21,736 nucleotides of DNA from Candidatus Heimdallarchaeota archaeon (GTDB lineage: Archaea; Asgardarchaeota; Heimdallarchaeia; Heimdallarchaeales; Heimdallarchaeaceae), in NCBI GenBank assembly GCA_016839945.1, contig JAEOTE010000010.1, forward strand, positions 1 to 21,736. Reading direction: 5' to 3'. Position numbers and translations under genes: made by a program. Position 1 is the first letter of the stretch, and each line of letters starts with the position of its first letter. Positions 413 to 21,409 of this stretch are shown one piece after another. The notes beneath the pieces were generated by a model, which did not search any database, was not told where the DNA came from, and saw nothing but the letters and a program-made list of their open reading frames with translations.

Positions 413-1174
413 TTATTTTCCTAGGAAAAGCAATTTCAGAAAACCAGGTAATCTACGAATTGGAAACATAAACGCTGATCGTTTTATGTATTCCTTATGT
501 TCTTCTCCACTGCGAGCTATTAATTCTCTATCTTCCCTTAGGCCTATTACGACACAGGGAATAATCTGAAATGTAGCTGCAACAAGAGCTATCCAAGTAT
601 TACTCACAAAACCCATTGCAAGACCACCCGAGAATAAAGCGAGATGTAGAGGATGCCTGATAAACGAATATATTTTGCCTCTGACTATTCCTGTTTCTTC
701 TGGAAAGACAGTAAAAAGATCCATACCATGAGTCATCATTGAAAATCCTGATTTCTCTATTTGAATTGAAGTAGATACAAATAGAAATACACAGAACACT
801 ATAAGTATAACTTGAGCCCAGATTGGAAGTATTTTTGAGCCTTTGATGAAAGCAGGATGGAAGAAACAAGCATACCAAGCGACTAAATAAGGTAAGATAA
901 ACACATATAGGAATCTCTGATATGCAAGATCTTGATATTTCTTCCTATATATTAATGCATAACTGAAATGTATAAGTCCAATTATGCAAACAATCACGCA
1001 CATAATTGCTTGAGATAAAAGAGGTCCCCACCATTCAACCTTATTTACAAAATAGAAGAACAATACTGAGATTGCTATTAAACTAATCACATATAAGATA
1101 GTTAGAAAAACATATTGCCATTTTCTTAACAATGGAACTTTTTCGAGGAAGAGTTTGAAATCATCTGCATTCAT
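413..1174 (-). CDS. Isoprenylcysteine carboxyl methyltransferase / PEMT-family integral membrane methyltransferase
   Basis: Several hydrophobic helices. GKIYSFIRHPLH resembles the family motif G.Y..vRHP.Y. C-terminal REDRELIARSGEEHKEY...FMFP resembles EE..L...fG..Y..Y.....fiP. Confidence 0.7.
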   Translation of the reverse strand: MNADDFKLFLEKVPLLRKWQYVFLTILYVISLIAISVLFFYFVNKVEWWGPLLSQAIMCVIVCIIGLIHFSYALIYRKKYQDLAYQRFLYVFILPYLVAWYACFFHPAFIKGSKILPIWAQVILIVFCVFLFVSTSIQIEKSGFSMMTHGMDLFTVFPEETGIVRGKIYSFIRHPLHLALFSGGLAMGFVSNTWIALVAATFQIIPCVVIGLREDRELIARSGEEHKEYIKRSAFMFPIRRLPGFLKLLFLGK

Positions 1175-2411: not shown

Positions 2412-4787
2412 ATGAAGTTATTAGAACCATTTGTTTTGAACAAAATCAAGTTGAAAAACCGCATCATCATGCCCAGCATGGATACTAATTTTGGGGATGA
2501 AGAAGGAAACGTTCCTGATAAGTCAATAGAATATTATGAACTAAGGGCGAAGGGAGGAGCGGGTTTAATCATAGTTGAAGCAGCTTATTTTAACAAAGTG
2601 GGTGCTGGAACAACAACAATGCTTAGTATTGACAGCAATAAGAGAATCAAAAAATTCAAGGAAATAGTCAATGTGATTAAGAAACATGGATCACGTTGTT
2701 TAGTCCAAATCTATCATGCTGGTGCTCAAGCATCTTCATTTATGATTGGTCTTCAAGCTGTTGCTCCTTCCGCTGTACCTTTTGAAATGTCAGGAGAAAC
2801 TCCTATACCACTAACAAAAAATCAGATTTCTAAATTTGTTAAAGAATATGGGGATGCTTGTCTAAGGGCAAAGAAGGCAGGTTTCGATGGTGTTGAAATT
2901 CATGCTGGTCATGGTTACTTGCTCAACCAATTCTTTTCTTTAAGAACAAACAAAAGAAAAGACGAATATGGAGGACAATCTTTTGAGAATAGAACAAGAA
3001 TAGCAATAGATGTTATCAGAGAAGTAAGAAAAAGATGTGGTAATGACTTTATTTTAGGAGTTAGAATCAATGGTAGCGATTATATTAAAGATGGCTTAGA
3101 AATTGATGACATTATTCAAATCTCCAAGATACTTGAAAATGAAGGTATTGATCTTATAAATGTTACAGGGGGGGTTTTTGATAGTCCTAGATTTCCAGTT
3201 GTTCCATACATGAATTATCCTCGAGGTTGTTTTGTAGAAGATGCTCAACGAATTAAAGAAGCGCTTAAAAAAACTCCTGTTGCAGTTGTTGGAAGGATAA
3301 ATACTCCAGATGTTGCAGAAGAGATTCTACAAAATAATAAAGCAGACCTTATAGCTATAGGTAGAGCGTTATTAGCAGATCCGGAATTTCCAAACAAAAT
3401 AAAAGAAGGGAGAATTGAATCAATTAGAACTTGTATTGGTTGTAATACTTGTTTAAATCAAATTATGACTGAGCAACCAGTGCTTTGTTCCATTAATCCC
3501 AATCTTCTAGATTCAGAAGAAAGTATTCAGAAATCAGAAACTCCAATAAGCGTTCTAGTGGCAGGTAGTGGGCCTGCGGGATTAGAATTTGCTCGTATTG
3601 CTAAATTGCGAGGTCATGATGTGAAAATAGTTGAAAAGGATTCAACGATCGGGGGATCATTGAACCTAGCAAAAATAGCTCCAATGAAAAAAGAAGTAGA
3701 GAATTTGATCAATTATTATCAATACATCATAGAAAAACTAGGAATAAAAATTGAATTTAATACTTCTCTTTCCAAAGAAGTTATAGATGAATTTAATCCC
3801 AATTCCGTTGTTCTAGCAACGGGAATCAAGCCAAAAACACCGGATATAATAGGAATTAAAGAAGTTAAATTCTATAACTACGTAGATGTTCTAAAAGGGA
3901 ACATCCCAAAAGGACAAAGAATTGTCGTATTAGGAGGAGACATGATTGGAATCGAAATTGCTGAATTTCTATCATGTGCAAATAAAGAGATCGTTGTAGT
4001 TAGTGAAAAGAAAAGGTTGGGTACTGATCTTTATTCACTTGTAGCTAGAGAAGTAGTGCAAACAATTGAGGAAGACGATAAAATAGAAATAGTGCTCGAA
4101 ACAGAAGTTAAGGAAATCAAGGAAAATAAGCTAATTGTTCTTCAAAATAATCAAGAAGCAAGTATTGTTTTCGATGATATTGTTACTACTTCTGTCGAAC
4201 CTTCAATTGATTTAGAAAACGTTGTTAAGGATAATGTTGAGAAATCTTTCAAAATTGGTGATTGTAAGGAAGTACATCCAAGAAAAATCTTGGATTCAAT
4301 TAGCGAAGGTTATGAATTAGGTTTGATTATAGAAACACCTGAAGCCGATCTGTTATATTCTGACATTCTAGAACTAAAAGAAGGGGATTTAAAATCATTA
4401 ATTAAAATGAAAATGAAGAGACGTACATTCACTAATGATGACATTCCTGAATATCTAGAAATGATGGTTCAAATATGTAATGAAAATGAGAAAATACGAA
4501 AGAAGAATAAGAAAACTCAGCTCTTATTTCAGATACAAATAGGTGATGATAAAAATTATTACATAAAAATTGAGAATGGTCATTTCTCTGCTGGTGAAAG
4601 CAAAGTGGAAAATCCTAATGTTACAGTCTGCATGGATGAATCTATTGCTAGTGGCATCTTTATGGGAACAATAAACGCAGCTTCAGCTTATATGGCAAAG
4701 GAATTGAAATTTGAGGGATCGATGATGCAAGGAATAAAATTTAGAACTTTAACCGATGCAGTAATCAAAGAATTAGAAAATACATAA
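2412..4787 (+). CDS. NADH:flavin oxidoreductase (OYE-like FMN TIM barrel + 4Fe-4S + FAD Rossmann; 2,4-dienoyl-CoA reductase/BaiCD-like) with C-terminal SCP2 lipid-binding domain
   Basis: LKNRIIMPSM, RAKGGAGLII, GFDGVEIHAGHGYLLNQFFS, Fe-S motif CIGCNTC-x11-C, GSGPAG and VVLATG. The last ~110 aa have an SCP2 pattern (YYIKIENG...PNVTVCMD...G.INAASAYM..ELKFEGSM). SD-like GAGGT lies upstream. Confidence 0.85.
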   Translation: MKLLEPFVLNKIKLKNRIIMPSMDTNFGDEEGNVPDKSIEYYELRAKGGAGLIIVEAAYFNKVGAGTTTMLSIDSNKRIKKFKEIVNVIKKHGSRCLVQIYHAGAQASSFMIGLQAVAPSAVPFEMSGETPIPLTKNQISKFVKEYGDACLRAKKAGFDGVEIHAGHGYLLNQFFSLRTNKRKDEYGGQSFENRTRIAIDVIREVRKRCGNDFILGVRINGSDYIKDGLEIDDIIQISKILENEGIDLINVTGGVFDSPRFPVVPYMNYPRGCFVEDAQRIKEALKKTPVAVVGRINTPDVAEEILQNNKADLIAIGRALLADPEFPNKIKEGRIESIRTCIGCNTCLNQIMTEQPVLCSINPNLLDSEESIQKSETPISVLVAGSGPAGLEFARIAKLRGHDVKIVEKDSTIGGSLNLAKIAPMKKEVENLINYYQYIIEKLGIKIEFNTSLSKEVIDEFNPNSVVLATGIKPKTPDIIGIKEVKFYNYVDVLKGNIPKGQRIVVLGGDMIGIEIAEFLSCANKEIVVVSEKKRLGTDLYSLVAREVVQTIEEDDKIEIVLETEVKEIKENKLIVLQNNQEASIVFDDIVTTSVEPSIDLENVVKDNVEKSFKIGDCKEVHPRKILDSISEGYELGLIIETPEADLLYSDILELKEGDLKSLIKMKMKRRTFTNDDIPEYLEMMVQICNENEKIRKKNKKTQLLFQIQIGDDKNYYIKIENGHFSAGESKVENPNVTVCMDESIASGIFMGTINAASAYMAKELKFEGSMMQGIKFRTLTDAVIKELENT

Positions 4788-7382: not shown

Positions 7383-7619
7383 ATGTCATCAAATAAACCA
7401 ATGGATATACTTAACGATTCTCGCGAAAAAAGAGTATTAATTCGATTAAGAGGAAAAAGACGAATGAGAGGAATTCTCAAAAATTACGACCCTCATCTAA
7501 ATCTTACATTAGAAGACGCAGAAGAAATAGGTGAAGAAGGAAGTAATAAACTTGGAGATATAATTGTTCGTGGAGATAATGTTATAATGATTAGTCCACC
7601 CCCCCCACAAGAAAAATAA
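7383..7619 (+). CDS. Sm-like archaeal protein (SmAP/LSm)
   Basis: Sm1 motif (RGILKNYDPHLNLTLEDAEE) and Sm2 motif (IIVRGDNV). The linkage to rpl37e is conserved in archaea. Confidence 0.95.
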   Translation: MSSNKPMDILNDSREKRVLIRLRGKRRMRGILKNYDPHLNLTLEDAEEIGEEGSNKLGDIIVRGDNVIMISPPPPQEK

Positions 7620-7631
7620 GAAGTGATAACT

Positions 7632-7796
7632 ATGACAAAAGGTACACCATCATTTGGAAAACGTAACAAAAAAGCACCTCATATTATTTGTAGAAGATGT
7701 GGGAACCGTTCTTTTCACAGACGTCACAAAATGTGTGCGTCTTGTGGTTTTGGAAAAACTACAAAGATAAGAAACTATGCGTGGCATAGACACTAA
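7632..7796 (+). CDS. rpl37e: 50S ribosomal protein eL37 (54 aa; absent from the ORF track)
   Basis: Hand translation: [54 protein letters not shown]. Contains the TKGT.SFGKR signature and a CxxC...CxxC zinc ribbon. Confidence 0.97.
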
Positions 7797-7819
7797 TCTT
7801 ATTGTGGTTGATTTTTGTA

Positions 7820-7896
7820 GGGCCGATAGATCAGCCTGGAAGATCGCTTCCTTGGCATGGAAGAGGCCGCGAGTTCGAATCTCGCTCGGTCCACCA
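7820..7896 (+). tRNA. tRNA-Ala(GGC), CCA encoded
   Basis: Acceptor GGGCCGA/TCGGTCC with G3.U70. Anticodon arm CTTCC-TTGGCAT-GGAAG. T arm GCGAG-TTCGAAT-CTCGC. Ends in ACCA, followed by a T tract. Confidence 0.97.
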
Positions 7897-7987: not shown

Positions 7988-8000
7988 TAAGTTTATATAT
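7988..8000 (+). promoter_or_regulatory. TATA box for the 546-aa gene (probably leaderless or short-leader mRNA)
   Basis: TAAG-TTTATATAT, with the TATA core starting 30 nt upstream of ATG 8022. Confidence 0.5.
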
Positions 8001-8021: not shown

Positions 8022-9662
8022 ATGGAAAAGTCTTATGACGAGAACTTAGCTAAACTCATGTCAGAAGCCCGAGATTTGTTTAAAAGTGAAAATTTTGCAG
8101 ACTCTGCTAGAAAGTATCTAGAAGCAGCAAAAAATCAAGAAGCTACTAGAGGAATGGCACAAGCAGAGGATTTGTATCATGAAGCAATTAAGAATTTTAT
8201 TCGAGCTTCAGAAGAAAACAAAGAGAAGAAACAATTTCGCATGAGTGCCCAAAATCTTTTTTATGTGGTGCAAGTTTTTCGAAAACTTGGAGCTGATGAA
8301 GACTGGAAAGCTGCTACTCAAGCAGTAGTTGATGATCTGCTTAATGCAGCACAAGAATATCTGATGTGGAATGAGTACGATAGAGGAATCATACTTGTAT
8401 CAACAGCTTGCTTTTTCCTGTTTTCAATTGAAGATTTTGGAACAGCAGAACAGCTTTATGGTCAATATATTGATCAAATAAAAGATGATCCTGGTTTTAC
8501 AAGAGCTCAACAAATACTTTATGCAGCAGGACATGCCATTAAAGCAGTCAAAGATTTGGACACTACATCTCTTCTCAATTCACAACAATTAGTTGGTAGT
8601 CATTTAAAGCCAGGATTAGGACAAATTGTTGGTGATTTATTCTTCCCTGCAATAGATAATGCAATGGACACAGTAGTTAGGATGTTTCGTTCTAAAATTA
8701 AACTTCCTAAAATTGTACCAGAGTTTAAGATATCCAGAGATTTGGTTCTCAATGAAGCAACTGTTTTAACTATTTTTGTTGAAAATGAAGGCCAAGGTGA
8801 TGCTTTCAACCTTTCTTTTAGATTGAATGTTCCTGAAAATATGGAAGTTCTTGAAGGTAGTAGAGAATTTACTATAGATCAGCTGCAAGCACAAAAAACA
8901 TCTGAACATAAATTAGTTATAAGATGTATGTCGTCAACAGGAGATATTGAACTTGAACTCAGTGCAAATGTCACTTTCTATGATCAACTTCAAACAAAAC
9001 AAACTATGATGATAGGTCCTTACGATCTCATATTTAGAGCTAAAAGTTTGTCTAAAGAACTAGAAGTTGAACTTGCATCATTAGCAGAAAAGAATTCCGA
9101 ATACAAAAAACAGATGGAAGAAACAAACGTAATCCCAAATGAAGCAAGCAAGATGATGCTTGACTTTGTATCAAGTATAATAAAAGATTCAGAGAACTTA
9201 GTTGAAAATGAAGAATTTGAAACCATCCATGCAAACATTAGAAGTGTAAAAAATGTTCATGAAATGGTTGAAAAAATAACTAGTGAAGAATTTCTTGAAC
9301 CAATTTTGGAAGCGCGTAAAAGGGAATTTGATGCCAAAATTGAAGAAGCAAAAATAGAATGGAACGAACAAGTTGAAGAAATAAAAGAGAATCTCAGGAA
9401 ATCCTTCGAAGAAGAAAAGATTGTATTAAGAGAAGAATTCAACGAAGATCAGAAGGAGCTTCTAGCAAAGATTGATGAAGACCATAAAAAAGAGATTGAT
9501 CTTTTAGGAGAAGAATATAACAATCGACTAGAACAAGCTCTAGAAGAACAAAATAAGAATTTTGAAGATCAAAAGAAGAAACTATTGGAAGAGCAAGAAG
9601 AAGTATTAAGAGCGGAATTCCAAAGACTGTTATCTGAATCACAAGATAAGAAAAGACGATAA
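8022..9662 (+). CDS. Hypothetical soluble protein: SNAP/TPR-like helical repeats + Ig-like (CARDB-like) beta-sandwich + long acidic coiled coil
   Basis: aa 1-225 contain helical-repeat patterns (F..SA..Y..AA, A...Y..A, Y..G). aa ~229-339 contain alternating beta strands with VENEGQGDAFNL. aa ~430-546 are an E/K-rich coiled coil. No signal peptide or TM segment is visible. Confidence 0.85.
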   Translation: MEKSYDENLAKLMSEARDLFKSENFADSARKYLEAAKNQEATRGMAQAEDLYHEAIKNFIRASEENKEKKQFRMSAQNLFYVVQVFRKLGADEDWKAATQAVVDDLLNAAQEYLMWNEYDRGIILVSTACFFLFSIEDFGTAEQLYGQYIDQIKDDPGFTRAQQILYAAGHAIKAVKDLDTTSLLNSQQLVGSHLKPGLGQIVGDLFFPAIDNAMDTVVRMFRSKIKLPKIVPEFKISRDLVLNEATVLTIFVENEGQGDAFNLSFRLNVPENMEVLEGSREFTIDQLQAQKTSEHKLVIRCMSSTGDIELELSANVTFYDQLQTKQTMMIGPYDLIFRAKSLSKELEVELASLAEKNSEYKKQMEETNVIPNEASKMMLDFVSSIIKDSENLVENEEFETIHANIRSVKNVHEMVEKITSEEFLEPILEARKREFDAKIEEAKIEWNEQVEEIKENLRKSFEEEKIVLREEFNEDQKELLAKIDEDHKKEIDLLGEEYNNRLEQALEEQNKNFEDQKKKLLEEQEEVLRAEFQRLLSESQDKKRR

Positions 9663-9682
9663 TTCTATCTTTTATTTTTCTT

Positions 9683-10084
9683 TTACTTTATTTTTAGCAT
9701 TTGTTTTTCAGTATCTATTTGAATTGTATCACCAGTTTTGATAATAGTAGTAACATCTTCTTCAAATTGGTCAACAAGAGTGATTTCAGCTAAAATTGCA
9801 CCGGCGATTACTATCGTTTCTGCCTTGTTTGTAACTAAAGCTAGTGGAGATGCTTGATTCTTCTTTAAACCATAAATAACGTAGGATCCAACAGTAGACC
9901 CTCTCCCCCCAGGAAAAACAAATATCTTATTAGCTATTGTTTTGCCATACAAAGGATTTTTTGAATCAAGCACTATCCCTGATTGAGGATCGATTTCTCC
10001 AAAAAATGAAATTGGGTTAGGTGACACTATTGCTTCTCCTTCAACCTTACCATCAACTATTGATCTAAATTTCATTTTTTTCAT
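9683..10084 (-). CDS. Aconitase X swiveling-domain small subunit (DUF126); probable phosphomevalonate dehydratase small subunit
   Basis: GKVEGEAIVS..PISFFG.IDP.SG and FPGGRGSTVGSYVIY. ATGA overlap with the large-subunit stop codon. Confidence 0.88.
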   Translation of the reverse strand: MKKMKFRSIVDGKVEGEAIVSPNPISFFGEIDPQSGIVLDSKNPLYGKTIANKIFVFPGGRGSTVGSYVIYGLKKNQASPLALVTNKAETIVIAGAILAEITLVDQFEEDVTTIIKTGDTIQIDTEKQMLKIK

Positions 10085-11280
10085 TTTATTACTCGCTCCA
10101 TTATCTTCTCTAATTGTAACAATTTAACTTTGATATGTTCGTCGCGAGACAAGTAAAATGCTGCTTTTGCTGAATTTGTCATAATGTTCGAAAAATTGTT
10201 TCTAACTACAGGTGATACAACCATACAAGTATCTGCAAATATCTTTATACCTCTGCTTTCAAGATTCTCTATTGTATTTGATGCATCTTTACTTTGTATT
10301 ACTTTGTTAGATGAGAATACCCAAAATTCAACATCTTCCTTTAATGATTGATTCTTTAAATATGACTCAATTAATACTAACTCACTTAAACTTGTATGAG
10401 GGCATCCCACTGTCACAAGATCTACTTCTCCTTCAGTAGAATCGTATAACTCATAAATCTCTTGTTTTTCATTTTCAGTAAAAATAATGTGTTCTTCAAC
10501 ATCTTTCTGATTAATTGTTTTTGCATCTGGAGTTACGTTTTGAATGTGAAAATGAGCAACACTCCCTACAGAAGCCATTGCAGAAGCCATCATCTTAGTT
10601 TTATCTAGAGTCACATTCTTAATGTTTGAGAAAAATGGTATAAGTCCATGAAATTTCTCGCCAAACCAGTAACCCAAAGCAGAAAAATCAGAAGGGTGAA
10701 TAATTTGAGCTTCAACATCTATTAATACATCTGGTAACCTATTTTCTTTTTTATGCAAACCATAATATGCAGTTAAGCCAGTAATAGCTGCTGCTAAAGA
10801 TGAGGGTGCTCCTTCTCTATTTGTTCTAGCACCAAAAAAACCATTTGCCATTATTACTGCTGAAGATTCACTCCAGGCTAAATGTTCTCCATAAGAAGGT
10901 TGATGTCCAATTAAATAAGGAGTACATGAAAGAGTTGTTTCAATCCCCATTTTTTCATAAGTTTGAATTATTTCAAACTGTTTTTTCGCGAATTTTTCAT
11001 CTATCTTCATAGCTTTCCATTTATTTCTATCCATTCCTGCTGGATTTAACCAACTTGGAACACTAACTTTAACTTCGTCCTTTAGAAGCAAATCAAAAAA
11101 AGAAAAAATAGAGTCACCAACTGTAAAGTACGAAACTCCTGCTATTTGAGCACTTTTTATTGGTATAAGTTTTTCCGCTTTATTTACCTCACCTATCTTT
11201 ACAATTAATTGCATCAACTTGGCTATAGCATCACCTTTTTCTCCATCTAGCATCTTTTCTTGATGTTTTGTGAGGTATAT
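10081..11280 (-). CDS. Aconitase X catalytic large subunit (DUF521); probable phosphomevalonate dehydratase large subunit
   Basis: SCTPY, AWSESSA, GARTNREG, GCPH and DTCMVV Fe-S Cys motifs. Start is uncertain: ATA 11280 (preferred, see findings), GTG 11289 or TTG 11316. Confidence 0.88.
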   Translation of the reverse strand: MYLTKHQEKMLDGEKGDAIAKLMQLIVKIGEVNKAEKLIPIKSAQIAGVSYFTVGDSIFSFFDLLLKDEVKVSVPSWLNPAGMDRNKWKAMKIDEKFAKKQFEIIQTYEKMGIETTLSCTPYLIGHQPSYGEHLAWSESSAVIMANGFFGARTNREGAPSSLAAAITGLTAYYGLHKKENRLPDVLIDVEAQIIHPSDFSALGYWFGEKFHGLIPFFSNIKNVTLDKTKMMASAMASVGSVAHFHIQNVTPDAKTINQKDVEEHIIFTENEKQEIYELYDSTEGEVDLVTVGCPHTSLSELVLIESYLKNQSLKEDVEFWVFSSNKVIQSKDASNTIENLESRGIKIFADTCMVVSPVVRNNFSNIMTNSAKAAFYLSRDEHIKVKLLQLEKIMERVIK

Positions 11281-11312
11281 CTTTACCACCTTTGATATTT
11301 GATTTACTAAAG

Positions 11313-11942
11313 TCAAGTACTATTGTTTTTCTTAGTTTTATAAATACAGTTATTTCTTAATAGGCACATATCACATTTTGGTTTATTTTTTAAACAAGAA
11401 TTTTTAGCATGTTTGACTAAGAGTGCATGAAATTCCTTATACAGTTGTATATCTTTAGGAAGATTATTCATAAATACTCTTTGGAGTTCTGAATAATTTC
11501 TGCCAGAATAAATTCCAATCCTTCTCATTATTCTAAATGTATATGAATCAATAACAAAATGGGGTTTCTCGAATAAATACAACAAAATAGAATCAGCTGT
11601 CTCTAACCCTATACCGTTTACTGCTAACAAATCCTCTCTACTTGGATCGGAATTGATTGAAAGTAATTTAATAAGATTCTTTAATCTTTGAGCCTTTACT
11701 TTATAATATCCACTAGATTTGATTAATTGTTCTAATTCTCCAATGGATATTTTTTCCAAGCATGTCAAAGATAAACAATTTGCATCCTTCAGTTTAGTAA
11801 GAGCTTTTTCAACATTACTCCAATTAGTCTGTTGTGTTAATACAGCCCCTACAGCGATTTCTAGACCTTCTCCTGGCCACCACTCTTGTGATCCGTAAAA
11901 ACTTAATAATTTATCGAAAATTTGTCTAAGTAACTCTTCCAT
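11313..11942 (-). CDS. HhH-GPD DNA glycosylase related to endonuclease III (COG2231-like) with 4Fe-4S motif
   Basis: GAVLTQQTNWSNV, HhH GIGLETADSILLY, catalytic VIDSY and C-x6-C-x2-C-x5-C. Glu replaces the lyase Lys, which suggests a monofunctional glycosylase. Confidence 0.88.
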   Translation of the reverse strand: MEELLRQIFDKLLSFYGSQEWWPGEGLEIAVGAVLTQQTNWSNVEKALTKLKDANCLSLTCLEKISIGELEQLIKSSGYYKVKAQRLKNLIKLLSINSDPSREDLLAVNGIGLETADSILLYLFEKPHFVIDSYTFRIMRRIGIYSGRNYSELQRVFMNNLPKDIQLYKEFHALLVKHAKNSCLKNKPKCDMCLLRNNCIYKTKKNNST

Positions 11943-17583: not shown

Positions 17584-18522
17584 TTGGATACTAATTTCCT
17601 TAAAATTGTAGAAGATATTCAAACTTTACGCATTCAAGGTGCCACTAATATTGCTGTTGAAGGAGTCAAGGCTTTTGCTTTATTAGCTGAACGACTTGAT
17701 ACTGGATCTTTAGAACCTTTTTTTGATGAATTAGAAAAAGCAAGATATGCTTTGGCAACAGCTAGGGCAACTGAACCTGCTTTAAGAAATGGACTACGAT
17801 ATATTATATATAATCTTCATGAAAATGCTTCTACAGTTAAAGAAGCAAAAGAGATTGTTAATTCACTTTCAAATGAATATATCCAATTACTTAAAGAATC
17901 AAAGAAGAAAGTTATCTCATATGGTGCTCATCGTATTAAAGATGGTAGCACTATAATGACACATTGTCATTCTTCTCTATCTACTGGAATAATCCTTGAA
18001 GCTCATCGACAAGGCAAAGAAATTCAAGTTTTTTGTACTGAAACTCGACCCTTATACCAAGGACGAATAACTGCTAAAGAGTTAGTTGATGCAGGGATTA
18101 CAACCACACAAGTTGTTGACAGCGCTATGCGATGGGTAATAAACAGTTATAATGTAGATATAATTATAACTGGAGCAGATGCTATAACCAGCCAAGGAAC
18201 GGTTATAAATAAAATTGGAACTAGACTACTAGCTCTAGCAGCTAAAGAAATGGATGTCCCATTTTATTCTGCTATCAATCTTCTAAAGTATGACCCAGAA
18301 ACAAGCATTGGAAAGTTATCAGAAATAGAGATGAGAGCTGCATCAGAAATATGGGATAAAGCACCTGATGGATTGAATTTTCTAAATCCTGCATTTGAAA
18401 CAGTATCCCATGATTTAATTGATGGTATCATTTCAGAATCAGGAGTTTTTTCACCATCCATTGTATATTTAATCATAAAGGAAAATTATCCGTTTATGAT
18501 AATTAGTGAAGAAATGAAATAA
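17584..18522 (+). CDS. Ribose-1,5-bisphosphate isomerase (eIF2B alpha/beta/delta family)
   Basis: IQGAT.IA, ARATEPALRN, catalytic THCHS, ETRP.YQG, GADAI, NKIGT and NPAFE. TTG start with a GGTGA SD. Adjacent to RuBisCO. Confidence 0.9.
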   Translation: MDTNFLKIVEDIQTLRIQGATNIAVEGVKAFALLAERLDTGSLEPFFDELEKARYALATARATEPALRNGLRYIIYNLHENASTVKEAKEIVNSLSNEYIQLLKESKKKVISYGAHRIKDGSTIMTHCHSSLSTGIILEAHRQGKEIQVFCTETRPLYQGRITAKELVDAGITTTQVVDSAMRWVINSYNVDIIITGADAITSQGTVINKIGTRLLALAAKEMDVPFYSAINLLKYDPETSIGKLSEIEMRAASEIWDKAPDGLNFLNPAFETVSHDLIDGIISESGVFSPSIVYLIIKENYPFMIISEEMK

Positions 18523-18554
18523 ATAATCAGAATTATTACGAAAAGTGAAAAATT

Positions 18555-19805
18555 ATGACAGAACGATATAAAGAATTGCTTGTTGCTCGATATTATGTAG
18601 AGCACGTCAAAAGCGTAGATGTTGCTGCAGAAGAAATCTGTGATGAAGAATCTGTAGGAACATGGACTGATTTAAGAACAACTGAGGGAAGACCTCATGT
18701 TGCTAAACTTCGTGCAGAAGTATTAGATAAGAAAGTCTTTGCTGATCATGAAGGATATCAGAGTGGAGAGGTTACTATAGGTTTCCAAACAGAAACTTTT
18801 GACATGGAAGCTGGAATAACAAGTATATTATCCATGTTAGCTGGAAATCTATTTGGTTTAGGAGCTTTGAGAAACATCAGATGGCTTGATGTTGATTTTC
18901 CAAGAAGTATTGCTGAATACTTTCCAGGTCCAAAATTTGGTGTAGAAGGAGTTAGAAAAATAATTGGTACTGATAAAGGGGAGTTTCCAAATCGTCCTCA
19001 TGTAGGTACAATTGTAAAGCCTAAGATGGGGTTGACTGCTAAGGAATGGGCAGAAGTTTCTTATGATGCGGCTTCAGGGGGTGTTGATTTCATTAAAGAT
19101 GATGAAAATTTAAGTAACCAACCATTTTGTCCGATAGATGAAAGAACAGTCAACGTTTTGGAAAAACTTGATTTAGTTAAAGAAGAGACAGGAAGAAATG
19201 TAATTCACGCCGTTAATGTAACAGCTACTCATGATGTTATGTGGAGACGAATCGAAGAAGCTCTAGATAATGGAGCTAAGTGTTTGATGATTGATGCGGT
19301 ACTAACTGGTTATCAAGAACTTGCACAAATGGCAAGAGATCCTAGTGTTAAGGTGCCTATTCATGTTCATCGAACAATGCACGCTGCATTTACTCGAAAT
19401 CCCTTGCATGGTATTTCTATGCTTCCCATTGCAAAGATAGTTCGTATGACTGGCGGAGATCAATTACACATTGGGTCATATGGTCAAGGTAAAATGGATA
19501 CTGATTTAGACCTTGAGCTTAAACTGAAAGATGCTTTGCTCAATAACATGTACGAATTCAAAACAGTATTTCCAGTAGCTTCTGGGGGACTTTATCCTGC
19601 CAAAATTCCTAATTTAGTGAAATATGGAGGGAATAATATTGTCCTGCAAGCTGGTGGTGGAATTCATGGTCATCCTGATGGAACCCGCAAAGGAGCAATG
19701 GCTATGCGTCAAGCTCTAGATGCAACTCTAAAAGGCATATCTCTTGATGAATATGCAAAGGAACACATAGAACTTGCTAAAGCTCTTGAGAAGTGGGGAA
19801 AATAA
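18555..19805 (+). CDS. rbcL: RuBisCO large subunit, form III
   Basis: Active-site residues present: E60/T65 (EESVGTW), N123 (GNLFG), K175/K177 (GTIVKPK), K201-D203-E204 (GGVDFIKDDE), H294/R295 (HVHR), H327, K334 (GKM), SGG and GGG. No small subunit gene. Confidence 0.92.
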   Translation: MTERYKELLVARYYVEHVKSVDVAAEEICDEESVGTWTDLRTTEGRPHVAKLRAEVLDKKVFADHEGYQSGEVTIGFQTETFDMEAGITSILSMLAGNLFGLGALRNIRWLDVDFPRSIAEYFPGPKFGVEGVRKIIGTDKGEFPNRPHVGTIVKPKMGLTAKEWAEVSYDAASGGVDFIKDDENLSNQPFCPIDERTVNVLEKLDLVKEETGRNVIHAVNVTATHDVMWRRIEEALDNGAKCLMIDAVLTGYQELAQMARDPSVKVPIHVHRTMHAAFTRNPLHGISMLPIAKIVRMTGGDQLHIGSYGQGKMDTDLDLELKLKDALLNNMYEFKTVFPVASGGLYPAKIPNLVKYGGNNIVLQAGGGIHGHPDGTRKGAMAMRQALDATLKGISLDEYAKEHIELAKALEKWGK

Positions 19806-21245: not shown

Positions 21246-21320
21246 GCGCTAATAGTCTAGTGGCTATGACTTCAGCCTTCCAAGCTGAAAACCCGGGTTC
21301 AATTCCCGGTTGGCGCACCA
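21246..21320 (+). tRNA. tRNA-Gly(TCC), CCA encoded
   Basis: Acceptor GCGCTAA/TTGGCGC. Anticodon arm TCAGC-CTTCCAA-GCTGA. T arm CCGGG-TTCAATT-CCCGG. Ends in ACCA. Confidence 0.97.
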
Positions 21321-21334
21321 AATATCAATTGTAA

Positions 21335-21409
21335 GCTCGTGTAGTCTAGTTGGTAGGACTCAGCCCTGCCACGGCTGGAACCCGGGTTCGAATCCCGGCG
21401 CGTGCACCA
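21335..21409 (+). tRNA. tRNA-Gly(GCC), CCA encoded; U3.U70 mismatch
   Basis: Acceptor GCTCGTG/CGCGTGC. Anticodon arm CAGCC-CTGCCAC-GGCTG. T arm CCGGG-TTCGAAT-CCCGG. Ends in ACCA. Starts 14 nt after tRNA-Gly(TCC). Confidence 0.95.

Follow-up and report, generated by a model that had tools for sequence, protein, structure and literature searches.

We analysed a 21,736-nucleotide stretch of DNA from a Candidatus Heimdallarchaeota archaeon (assembly GCA_016839945.1, contig JAEOTE010000010.1, positions 1 to 21,736), hereafter called the window, with the focus on an open reading frame (ORF) that encodes a 546-residue, three-module protein, P0001. The start codon of the ORF is kept across its relatives, which begin with the same residues. 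A TATA-like octamer precedes the ATG (Table 1) at the position expected of an archaeal promoter element, and its spacing predicts a leaderless or near-leaderless transcript. Just upstream of the ORF lies a compact cluster of LSm, ribosomal L37e and tRNA-Ala(GGC) genes (7383-7896), in which the tRNA gene (7820-7896) separates the ORF from the two protein genes. The downstream neighbour, the gene for the small subunit of aconitase X (AcnX), is convergent, and the T-rich spacer between the two reading frames is a plausible termination region. Because of the intervening tRNA gene and the convergent neighbour, the ORF forms a stand-alone transcription unit, in agreement with an earlier interpretation made from the DNA letters alone (hereafter the sequence-only reading), which had described a stand-alone gene with its own TATA box. 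In a principal component analysis of codon usage against 1827 long ORFs, the gene was unremarkable (23rd percentile on axis 1), giving no evidence of extreme expression.

Table 1. Features of the 546-residue protein gene and mean identity of each protein segment relative to the window's protein
Feature	Position	Strand	Residues	Description and basis	Identity within Heimdallarchaeaceae (%)	Identity, distant members (%)
TATA-like box	7992..7999	+		TTTATATA; octamer read directly from the sequence, ~26 nt 5' of the ATG		
Coding sequence, P0001	8022..9662	+		546-aa protein; full-length homologs exist		
N-terminal TPR-like domain	8022..8696	+	1-225	Ten helices = five hairpins; AlphaFold2, fold searches	78	20
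Linker and first strand	8697..8717	+	226-232	Consensus IKLPKI, P229 invariant; family alignment, per-domain identity	86	53
Ig-like beta-sandwich	8712..9038	+	231-339	CARDB/DUF11/TRAP-beta type; AlphaFold2, Pfam, structure matches	63	26
Three-helix bundle	9048..9278	+	343-419	AlphaFold2; generic three-helix-bundle matches	40	15
Tail, single long E/K-rich helix	9285..9650	+	422-543	AlphaFold2; hydrophobic period 3.72 (26/7)	44	16
T-rich spacer	9663..9682	no strand		20 nt, common to the ORF and the convergent AcnX small-subunit gene; read from the sequence; candidate termination region		

The whole protein was modelled with AlphaFold2 on 21 homologs, giving a mean predicted local distance difference test score (pLDDT) of 85.8, and the N-terminal domain (N-domain) was folded separately on 50 sequences with a pLDDT of 95.1 and a predicted template modelling score of 0.90. 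In the modelled order, ten helices (residues 2-225) are followed by eight strands (231-339), three helices (343-419) and one final helix (422-543). These models confirm the helical N-domain, the immunoglobulin-like (Ig) sandwich and the helical C-terminal part of the three modules proposed in the sequence-only reading, which had placed the beta-rich domain at nt ~8706-9038, close to the modelled strands at nt 8712-9038. The third module, described there as a long acidic coiled coil, required revision: it does end in a long helical tail, but it is actually made up of a three-helix bundle plus a helix that does not follow a heptad. The three-helix bundle resembles only generic bundles, such as the myosin VI lever-arm extension (Z 11.3) and designed bundles. 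Foldseek matches of the whole model to STAT, AlkC, Integrator, COPI and Brr2/Sec63 were rejected, as they have a root-mean-square deviation (rmsd) of around 20 and no shared architecture, and they arise from the mixture of helical and Ig elements.

The protein is acidic, with an isoelectric point (pI) of 4.8 and a net charge of -36, and contains two cysteines. Neither a signal peptide nor a membrane helix is visible in its 546 residues, as had been noted before. The N-terminus is polar, and the highest 19-residue Kyte-Doolittle mean, 1.62, falls within a helix (H119-135) of the TPR-like domain, which is confidently modelled. These properties support a three-module cytosolic architecture. Searches with hmmscan/Pfam, NCBIfam, PADLOC and PHROGs matched no catalytic, defence or phage family, and the last three gave no matches of any kind. 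PDB sequences searched with phmmer and with the family profile returned only noise (designed PPR repeats, apolipoprotein E, kinases). The protein has no Pfam or NCBIfam family of its own, and literature searches gave no mention of it.

Relatives were collected by several routes. A word-indexed search returned 60 relatives with 47-95% identity, most of them 547-581 aa long, and those with an organism name are all Heimdallarchaeota or Heimdallarchaeaceae. Scanning 1.84 billion cluster representatives with phmmer gave 60 proteins at E<=0.001, among them full-length relatives of 437-700 aa in other Asgard classes at 20-29% identity. The named members of these clusters are Baldr-, Odin-, Thor-, Loki-, Heimdall- and Hodarchaeales archaea or are labelled 'Asgard group', and no named family member lies outside Asgard. 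The weakest phmmer matches are unrelated multi-CARDB proteins of 857-1264 aa, which align through the Ig domain only. A locus search with a narrow alignment yielded 20 loci (15 from Heimdallarchaeota/Heimdallarchaeum, one each from Thorarchaeota and Promethearchaeati, and three titled only as archaea); the complete genome of Candidatus Heimdallarchaeum endolithica is among the named sources. A profile of 54 family members, A2, was then run against 400 Asgard species genomes, whose families carry the anonymous labels f1-f33, clade names resting on source annotations. Full-length matches at E<1e-80 were found in f1-f7, f10, f11 and f28-f33, and domain-level matches only in the genomes inspected from f8, f9, f12-f14, f19, f20, f23 and f26; the window's genome has a single copy. 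With every named relative from Asgard and full-length matches spread across many Asgard families, the phyletic profile supports a restriction of the protein to Asgard archaea. The refutation proposed with the sequence-only reading is half borne out: the structural matches of the protein, described below, are generic, yet its architecture is not widespread outside Asgard. A head-only profile, A5, found no longer or fused forms at E<=0.01, a result that is nearly uninformative because the known 670-aa relatives were missed too.

The identities across Heimdallarchaeaceae and the other Asgard classes indicate that the gene is under selection, which is distributed unevenly along the protein (Table 1). 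The short linker between the TPR-like and Ig domains is the most conserved short element family-wide, and the TPR-like domain is the best-conserved large domain within Heimdallarchaeaceae. The per-domain identities thus show that the head, comprising these two domains, carries the constraint, and a gradient from linker through TPR-like and Ig domains to the helical parts fits a binding head with a structural tail. A C-terminal KKRR sequence was rejected as a conserved motif since it is confined to close relatives.

The tail is poorly conserved in sequence and regular in its hydrophobic pattern. Residues 421-546 of the window's protein have a hydrophobic period of 3.72 (26/7), with almost no signal at the heptad value of 3.5. 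A period of 3.69-3.77 was found in 26 of the 28 long-tailed Heimdall-type members, and one further Heimdall-type member peaks at 3.65, barely above the shuffle threshold and at chance-level power. In all but this last member, the periodicity power is 2-5 times the 95th percentile of shuffles, again with almost none at 3.5. The period of about 3.73 is retained despite a tail identity of only ~16% among distant members. Four Thor-type members of 564-592 aa (P0075, P0086, P0091 and P0092), in contrast, have a tail period of about 3.5, and the tail geometry seems to have switched between the Thor-type and Heimdall-type clades. In coiled-coil theory, a period above the ~3.63 residues per turn of a relaxed helix leads to a straight to right-handed bundle, which would be expected here from the period of ~3.73. 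The tail is accordingly predicted to form a non-heptad coiled coil, with a length of ~18 nm if straight.

In f19 and f20, the partial A2 matches belong to a sister form of ~432 aa, which has a TPR-like N-domain of ~205 aa and then two Ig domains, but lacks a helical tail. This TPR-Ig-Ig family, the Loki-type form, is large and annotated only as 'TPR repeat protein' (for example, L033:529-1827). When its profile, A4, was compared with A2 in hhalign, the C-terminal Ig domain of the sister form matched the window's Ig domain with 98.5% probability (E 1.5e-15), and a collinear 65-column stretch of the N-domains matched with 82% probability (E 1e-5), whereas the first Ig domain was unrelated to that of the window's protein in the profile-profile comparison. 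In a sample of 121 genomes, A4 found matches only in f19 and f20 (16 genomes), two families without a full-length match of the tailed form, and none in the families that carry the tailed form. Its sole match in the window's genome is the 546-aa ORF itself, and a divergent TPR-Ig-Ig protein of 424 aa is present in f12. The two forms share an Asgard-only distribution, a cytosolic character, an N-terminal TPR-like domain of similar length and a homologous C-terminal Ig domain. They differ in that the Loki-type form has the extra Ig domain, lacks the three-helix bundle and tail, and is encoded next to an AMP phosphorylase gene. With moderate confidence, the two forms can be seen as alternative architectures of a single Asgard TPR-Ig superfamily; no family was found to have both, and this complementarity argues for a conserved core job.

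The gene beside the Loki-type form touches on a side observation. Two proteins that we interpret as enzymes of AMP salvage in archaea are encoded in the window at 17584-19805, namely a ribose-1,5-bisphosphate isomerase of the IF-2B family and a homolog of the RuBisCO large chain. AMP phosphorylase, whose gene lies directly beside the sister TPR-Ig-Ig gene in Loki-type genomes (L033-L035), is the third. In a genome of the window's family (L021:4607-9542), the isomerase and RuBisCO-homolog genes are immediately upstream of LSm, L37e and the homolog of the 546-aa gene, and the window's own genome encodes its AMP phosphorylase homologs elsewhere, on contigs C177 and C78. The proximity of AMP salvage genes to TPR-Ig genes may be due to chance.

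From these results, we consider the protein to be probably a soluble, acidic, non-enzymatic oligomeric scaffold or adaptor specific to Asgard archaea, with a TPR-Ig head on a coiled-coil rod. In the proposed arrangement, the five-hairpin TPR-like domain and the CARDB-type Ig sandwich, joined by the conserved short linker, would form a protein-binding head. The head would be followed by the three-helix bundle and then by the ~120-residue helix with a hydrophobic period of ~3.73, which may assemble into an elongated, slightly right-handed coiled coil, a rod of ~18 nm that would carry at least two heads at its end. Of this picture, the domain composition, conservation, cytosolic character, Asgard restriction and tail periodicity are shown, whereas the assembly into oligomers, the capture of ligands by the head and the role as an adaptor are inferred. 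Several points weigh against this interpretation. No partner was identified, and a scaffold is the default reading for any combination of TPR, Ig and coiled coil. The line of evidence pointing to oligomerisation is the periodicity of the tail, which AlphaFold2 draws as a lone helix (pLDDT 57-87) that would also fit a single stable helix. The gene order LSm, L37e, tRNA-Ala, 546-aa gene and AcnX is kept in one genome of the same family (Heimdallarchaeaceae) and absent from 11 genomes of other families, where the neighbours are unrelated housekeeping genes; among 12 distant genomes compared, none beyond Heimdallarchaeaceae has a neighbour in common with the window. With its conservation limited to this family, the neighbourhood offers no functional clue.

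The two domains of the head were compared with known folds. In a Foldseek search with the N-domain model, the top ranks were occupied by Sec17, alpha-SNAP, gamma-SNAP and the SNAP-like HAP40, with E values of 6e-4 to 1e-2, template modelling scores of 0.3-0.43 and rmsd of 11-16 Å, and Acl4 also appears in the list. In VIA-align, the best matches were LGN (Z 11.9), Sec17 (Z 11.8-11.2; for 9nly_H, Z 11.5 and rmsd 4.4 over 190 residues), gamma-SNAP (Z 11.6), sNASP (Z 11.0), AspH (Z 10.8), AtNASP (Z 10.7) and 14-3-3 (Z 10.6), with Hif1 at Z 9.0. For helical repeats, a Z below about 13 in this comparison can mean a common arrangement only, and the SNAP-family structures are not separated from LGN, NASP, AspH and 14-3-3 by Z-score. 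The canonical TPR hidden Markov models (HMMs; TPR_1/2/8/12) do not match the window's protein and give scattered sub-threshold matches in its relatives. The helices of the N-domain are 15-24 residues long, forming hairpins of ~45 residues rather than the 34 of the canonical TPR repeat, and these long-helix hairpins are probably the reason for the resemblance to SNAP.

The Ig domain carries a strand motif, N-x-G-x-G-x-A (N255, G257, G259 and A261), that is invariant or nearly so. None of the Pfam cut-offs is reached by the window's protein (TRAP_beta, 17.0 bits vs 22.4), whereas its relative P0073 exceeds those of CARDB (27.8 vs 22.7) and DUF11 (28.4 vs 24.6); at E<=0.01, TRAP_beta matches 14 of the 54 family members and CARDB eight. 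TRAP-beta is also the top structural match in Foldseek (E 2.7e-7, rmsd 2.2 over 115), and the alpha-adaptin appendage is found at E 8e-5. The remaining matches include a bacterial A2M macroglobulin domain (Z 13.3), BBS9 GAE (Z 12.1), complement C3 (Z 11.9), HAP2 domain III (Z 11.7), transglutaminase C-terminal domains (Z 11.5), CARDB 3idu (Z 10.1, rmsd 3.0 over 101 residues) and GGA2 GAE (Z 10.0). The sequence evidence supports placing the domain, a generic sandwich, with the CARDB, DUF11, NPCBM_assoc and TRAP-beta families, and the earlier description of a CARDB-like Ig domain holds. In contrast to members of these families arrayed on surface proteins, the window's domain is cytosolic, single and flanked by helical domains.

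The resemblance of the N-domain to SNAP raises the question of whether the protein is remotely homologous or functionally analogous to alpha-SNAP/Sec17, as an adaptor coupling a Cdc48/NSF-like AAA+ ATPase to a helical-bundle substrate. The lead of SNAP proteins in the Foldseek ranking, the Z-scores of Sec17 and gamma-SNAP, and the contact of three of the 54 family members with the SNAP family PF14938 (all below the cut-off; best E 0.0014) speak for it. The Foldseek matches are weak, however, and other folds tie with SNAP in VIA-align. PF14938 (gathering score 25 bits) failed to match the 546-aa ORF in hmmscan even at E<=10, yet it matched at 18 places listed elsewhere in the window's genome. 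Eleven of the 14 control genomes also had matches, to ordinary TPR proteins, and E. coli and B. subtilis are among these eleven. The family profile retrieved no SNAP from the PDB sequences, and the nearest named clusters in the language-model search (Thor, Loki, Methanobacteriota and Bathyarchaeota, all below 0.9) are TPR proteins of the ordinary archaeal kind that merely bear the SNAP label. SNAP itself has ~290 residues and 14 helices, with a nine-helix twisted sheet, a C-terminal globular bundle and a free C-terminus that contacts NSF (1QQE, 20S structures). The N-domain shares with it an all-helical array of TPR-like hairpins with long helices, but has ten helices in 225 residues, is acidic (net charge -8) rather than basic, and runs directly into the Ig domain instead of ending free. 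The kinship drawn in the sequence-only reading from A..Y..AA repeats, said to typify alpha-SNAP/Sec17, is thus not borne out, and we regard a SNAP-type adaptor as quite improbable. The N-domain matches also bring up an acidic chaperone for basic proteins such as histones or ribosomal proteins, analogous to the SHNi-TPR proteins NASP/Hif1 or to Acl4. The NASP-family scores, the Acl4 match, the strong acidity of the protein and the proximity of L37e, LSm and L11 genes within Heimdallarchaeaceae all favour such a chaperone. The NASP scores nevertheless tie with those of many unrelated TPR folds, the ribosomal neighbourhood is absent outside one family, NASP has no Ig domain, and the acidity may merely reflect the E-rich tail, so that this role is unlikely.

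A further alternative is an archaeal forerunner or analog of the solenoid-plus-Ig trafficking proteins (TRAPPC8/11-type subunits, adaptin/GGA appendages) acting as a membrane tether. TRAPPC8 and TRAPPC11 consist of an alpha-solenoid followed by Ig-like domains (PMC8204870, PMC4094338), and the window's protein has this order, continued by a rod-like coiled coil as in tethers. In an ESM Atlas feature search with residues 1-345, the only eukaryotic clusters listed were TRAPPC11-like (0.77) and TRAPPC8-like (0.76), although scores under 0.8 are in a range often reached by shuffled proteins. The alpha-adaptin, GGA2 and BBS9 matches add to this side. Macroglobulin, BBS9-GAE, complement, transglutaminase and CARDB domains match about equally well, however, with A2M and complement as good or better, so adaptin and TRAPP are not singled out. 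None of Foie-gras_1 (PF11817), Gryzun-like (PF12742) and the TRAPPC8 Ig model (PF24545) matched the ORF at E<=10, and hmmscan at the same threshold listed no TRAPP family. With Z 8.6 and rmsd 10.1, the match of TRAPPC11 (7b6h) to the N-domain is generic. Those eukaryotic subunits are more than twice as large as the protein, which has a single Ig domain and a coiled-coil tail and lacks an element for membrane binding. The neighbours scanned included neither a GTPase gene nor a longin gene. The common order of solenoid and Ig domains, as modelled, is an architectural likeness only, the relations to adaptin appendages and TRAPP large subunits proposed earlier found no support, and a TRAPP- or adaptin-type tether is improbable. 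We give similarly little credence to the broader idea that eukaryotic trafficking scaffolds (TRAPPC8/11-type or SNAP-like) go back to solenoid-plus-Ig modules of which the TPR-Ig head is an archaeal relative that has survived, with the protein as a coiled-coil tether or AAA-ATPase adaptor in the membrane or protein-complex dynamics of Asgard cells. CARDB, DUF11 and BatD-type domains are mostly extracytoplasmic, and the multi-CARDB proteins among the weakest sequence matches would be in line with a protein that is secreted or placed on the cell surface through an export route not recognised so far. The lack of a signal peptide and membrane helix, the presence of only two cysteines, the acidic TPR and coiled-coil build and the conserved start codon make export highly improbable.

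The preferred reading of a soluble Asgard scaffold or adaptor therefore retains one part of the sequence-only reading, which had suggested an Asgard scaffold or tether related to the eukaryotic trafficking toolkit. The Asgard-only, three-module protein stands, while kinship with SNAP, TRAPP and adaptin finds no support, and the likeness to a eukaryotic trafficking scaffold lies in layout only. New in the present analysis are the sister form with its complementary distribution, the comparison of tail periodicity between clades and a control that reveals PF14938 as unspecific. Widely conserved Asgard-specific proteins without bacterial or other archaeal counterparts are few, and they are candidates for the cell biology that sets the lineage apart; this protein was found in most Asgard families searched. 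Identifying its partner would tell whether Asgard cells already used solenoid-plus-Ig adaptors. The matches of PF14938 to most control genomes call for caution with 'SNAP' labels on archaeal TPR proteins, and the null result warns that such labels are not evidence of SNARE machinery. A 265-aa TPR protein (G000:C1, L001:1396-2193) that seems to be of the ordinary kind nevertheless scores above the cut-off of the SNAP model in Pfam (39.5 bits, E 4.7e-10) and touches Foie-gras_1 at E 0.09.

Several other genes were noted in the window. The small and large subunit genes of AcnX, an enzyme tied to the modified archaeal mevalonate pathway, occupy 9683-11316 (-), convergent to the ORF, and their pairing with the 546-aa gene is kept only within Heimdallarchaeaceae. 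A 253-aa ORF at 413-1174 (-) matches no Pfam family at E<=0.001. At 2412-4787, a 791-aa fusion unites an FMN oxidoreductase of the Old Yellow Enzyme type with a pyridine-nucleotide-disulphide oxidoreductase domain and, at the C-terminus, an SCP2 sterol-carrier domain, and two tRNA-Gly genes (TCC and GCC) are located at 21246-21409.

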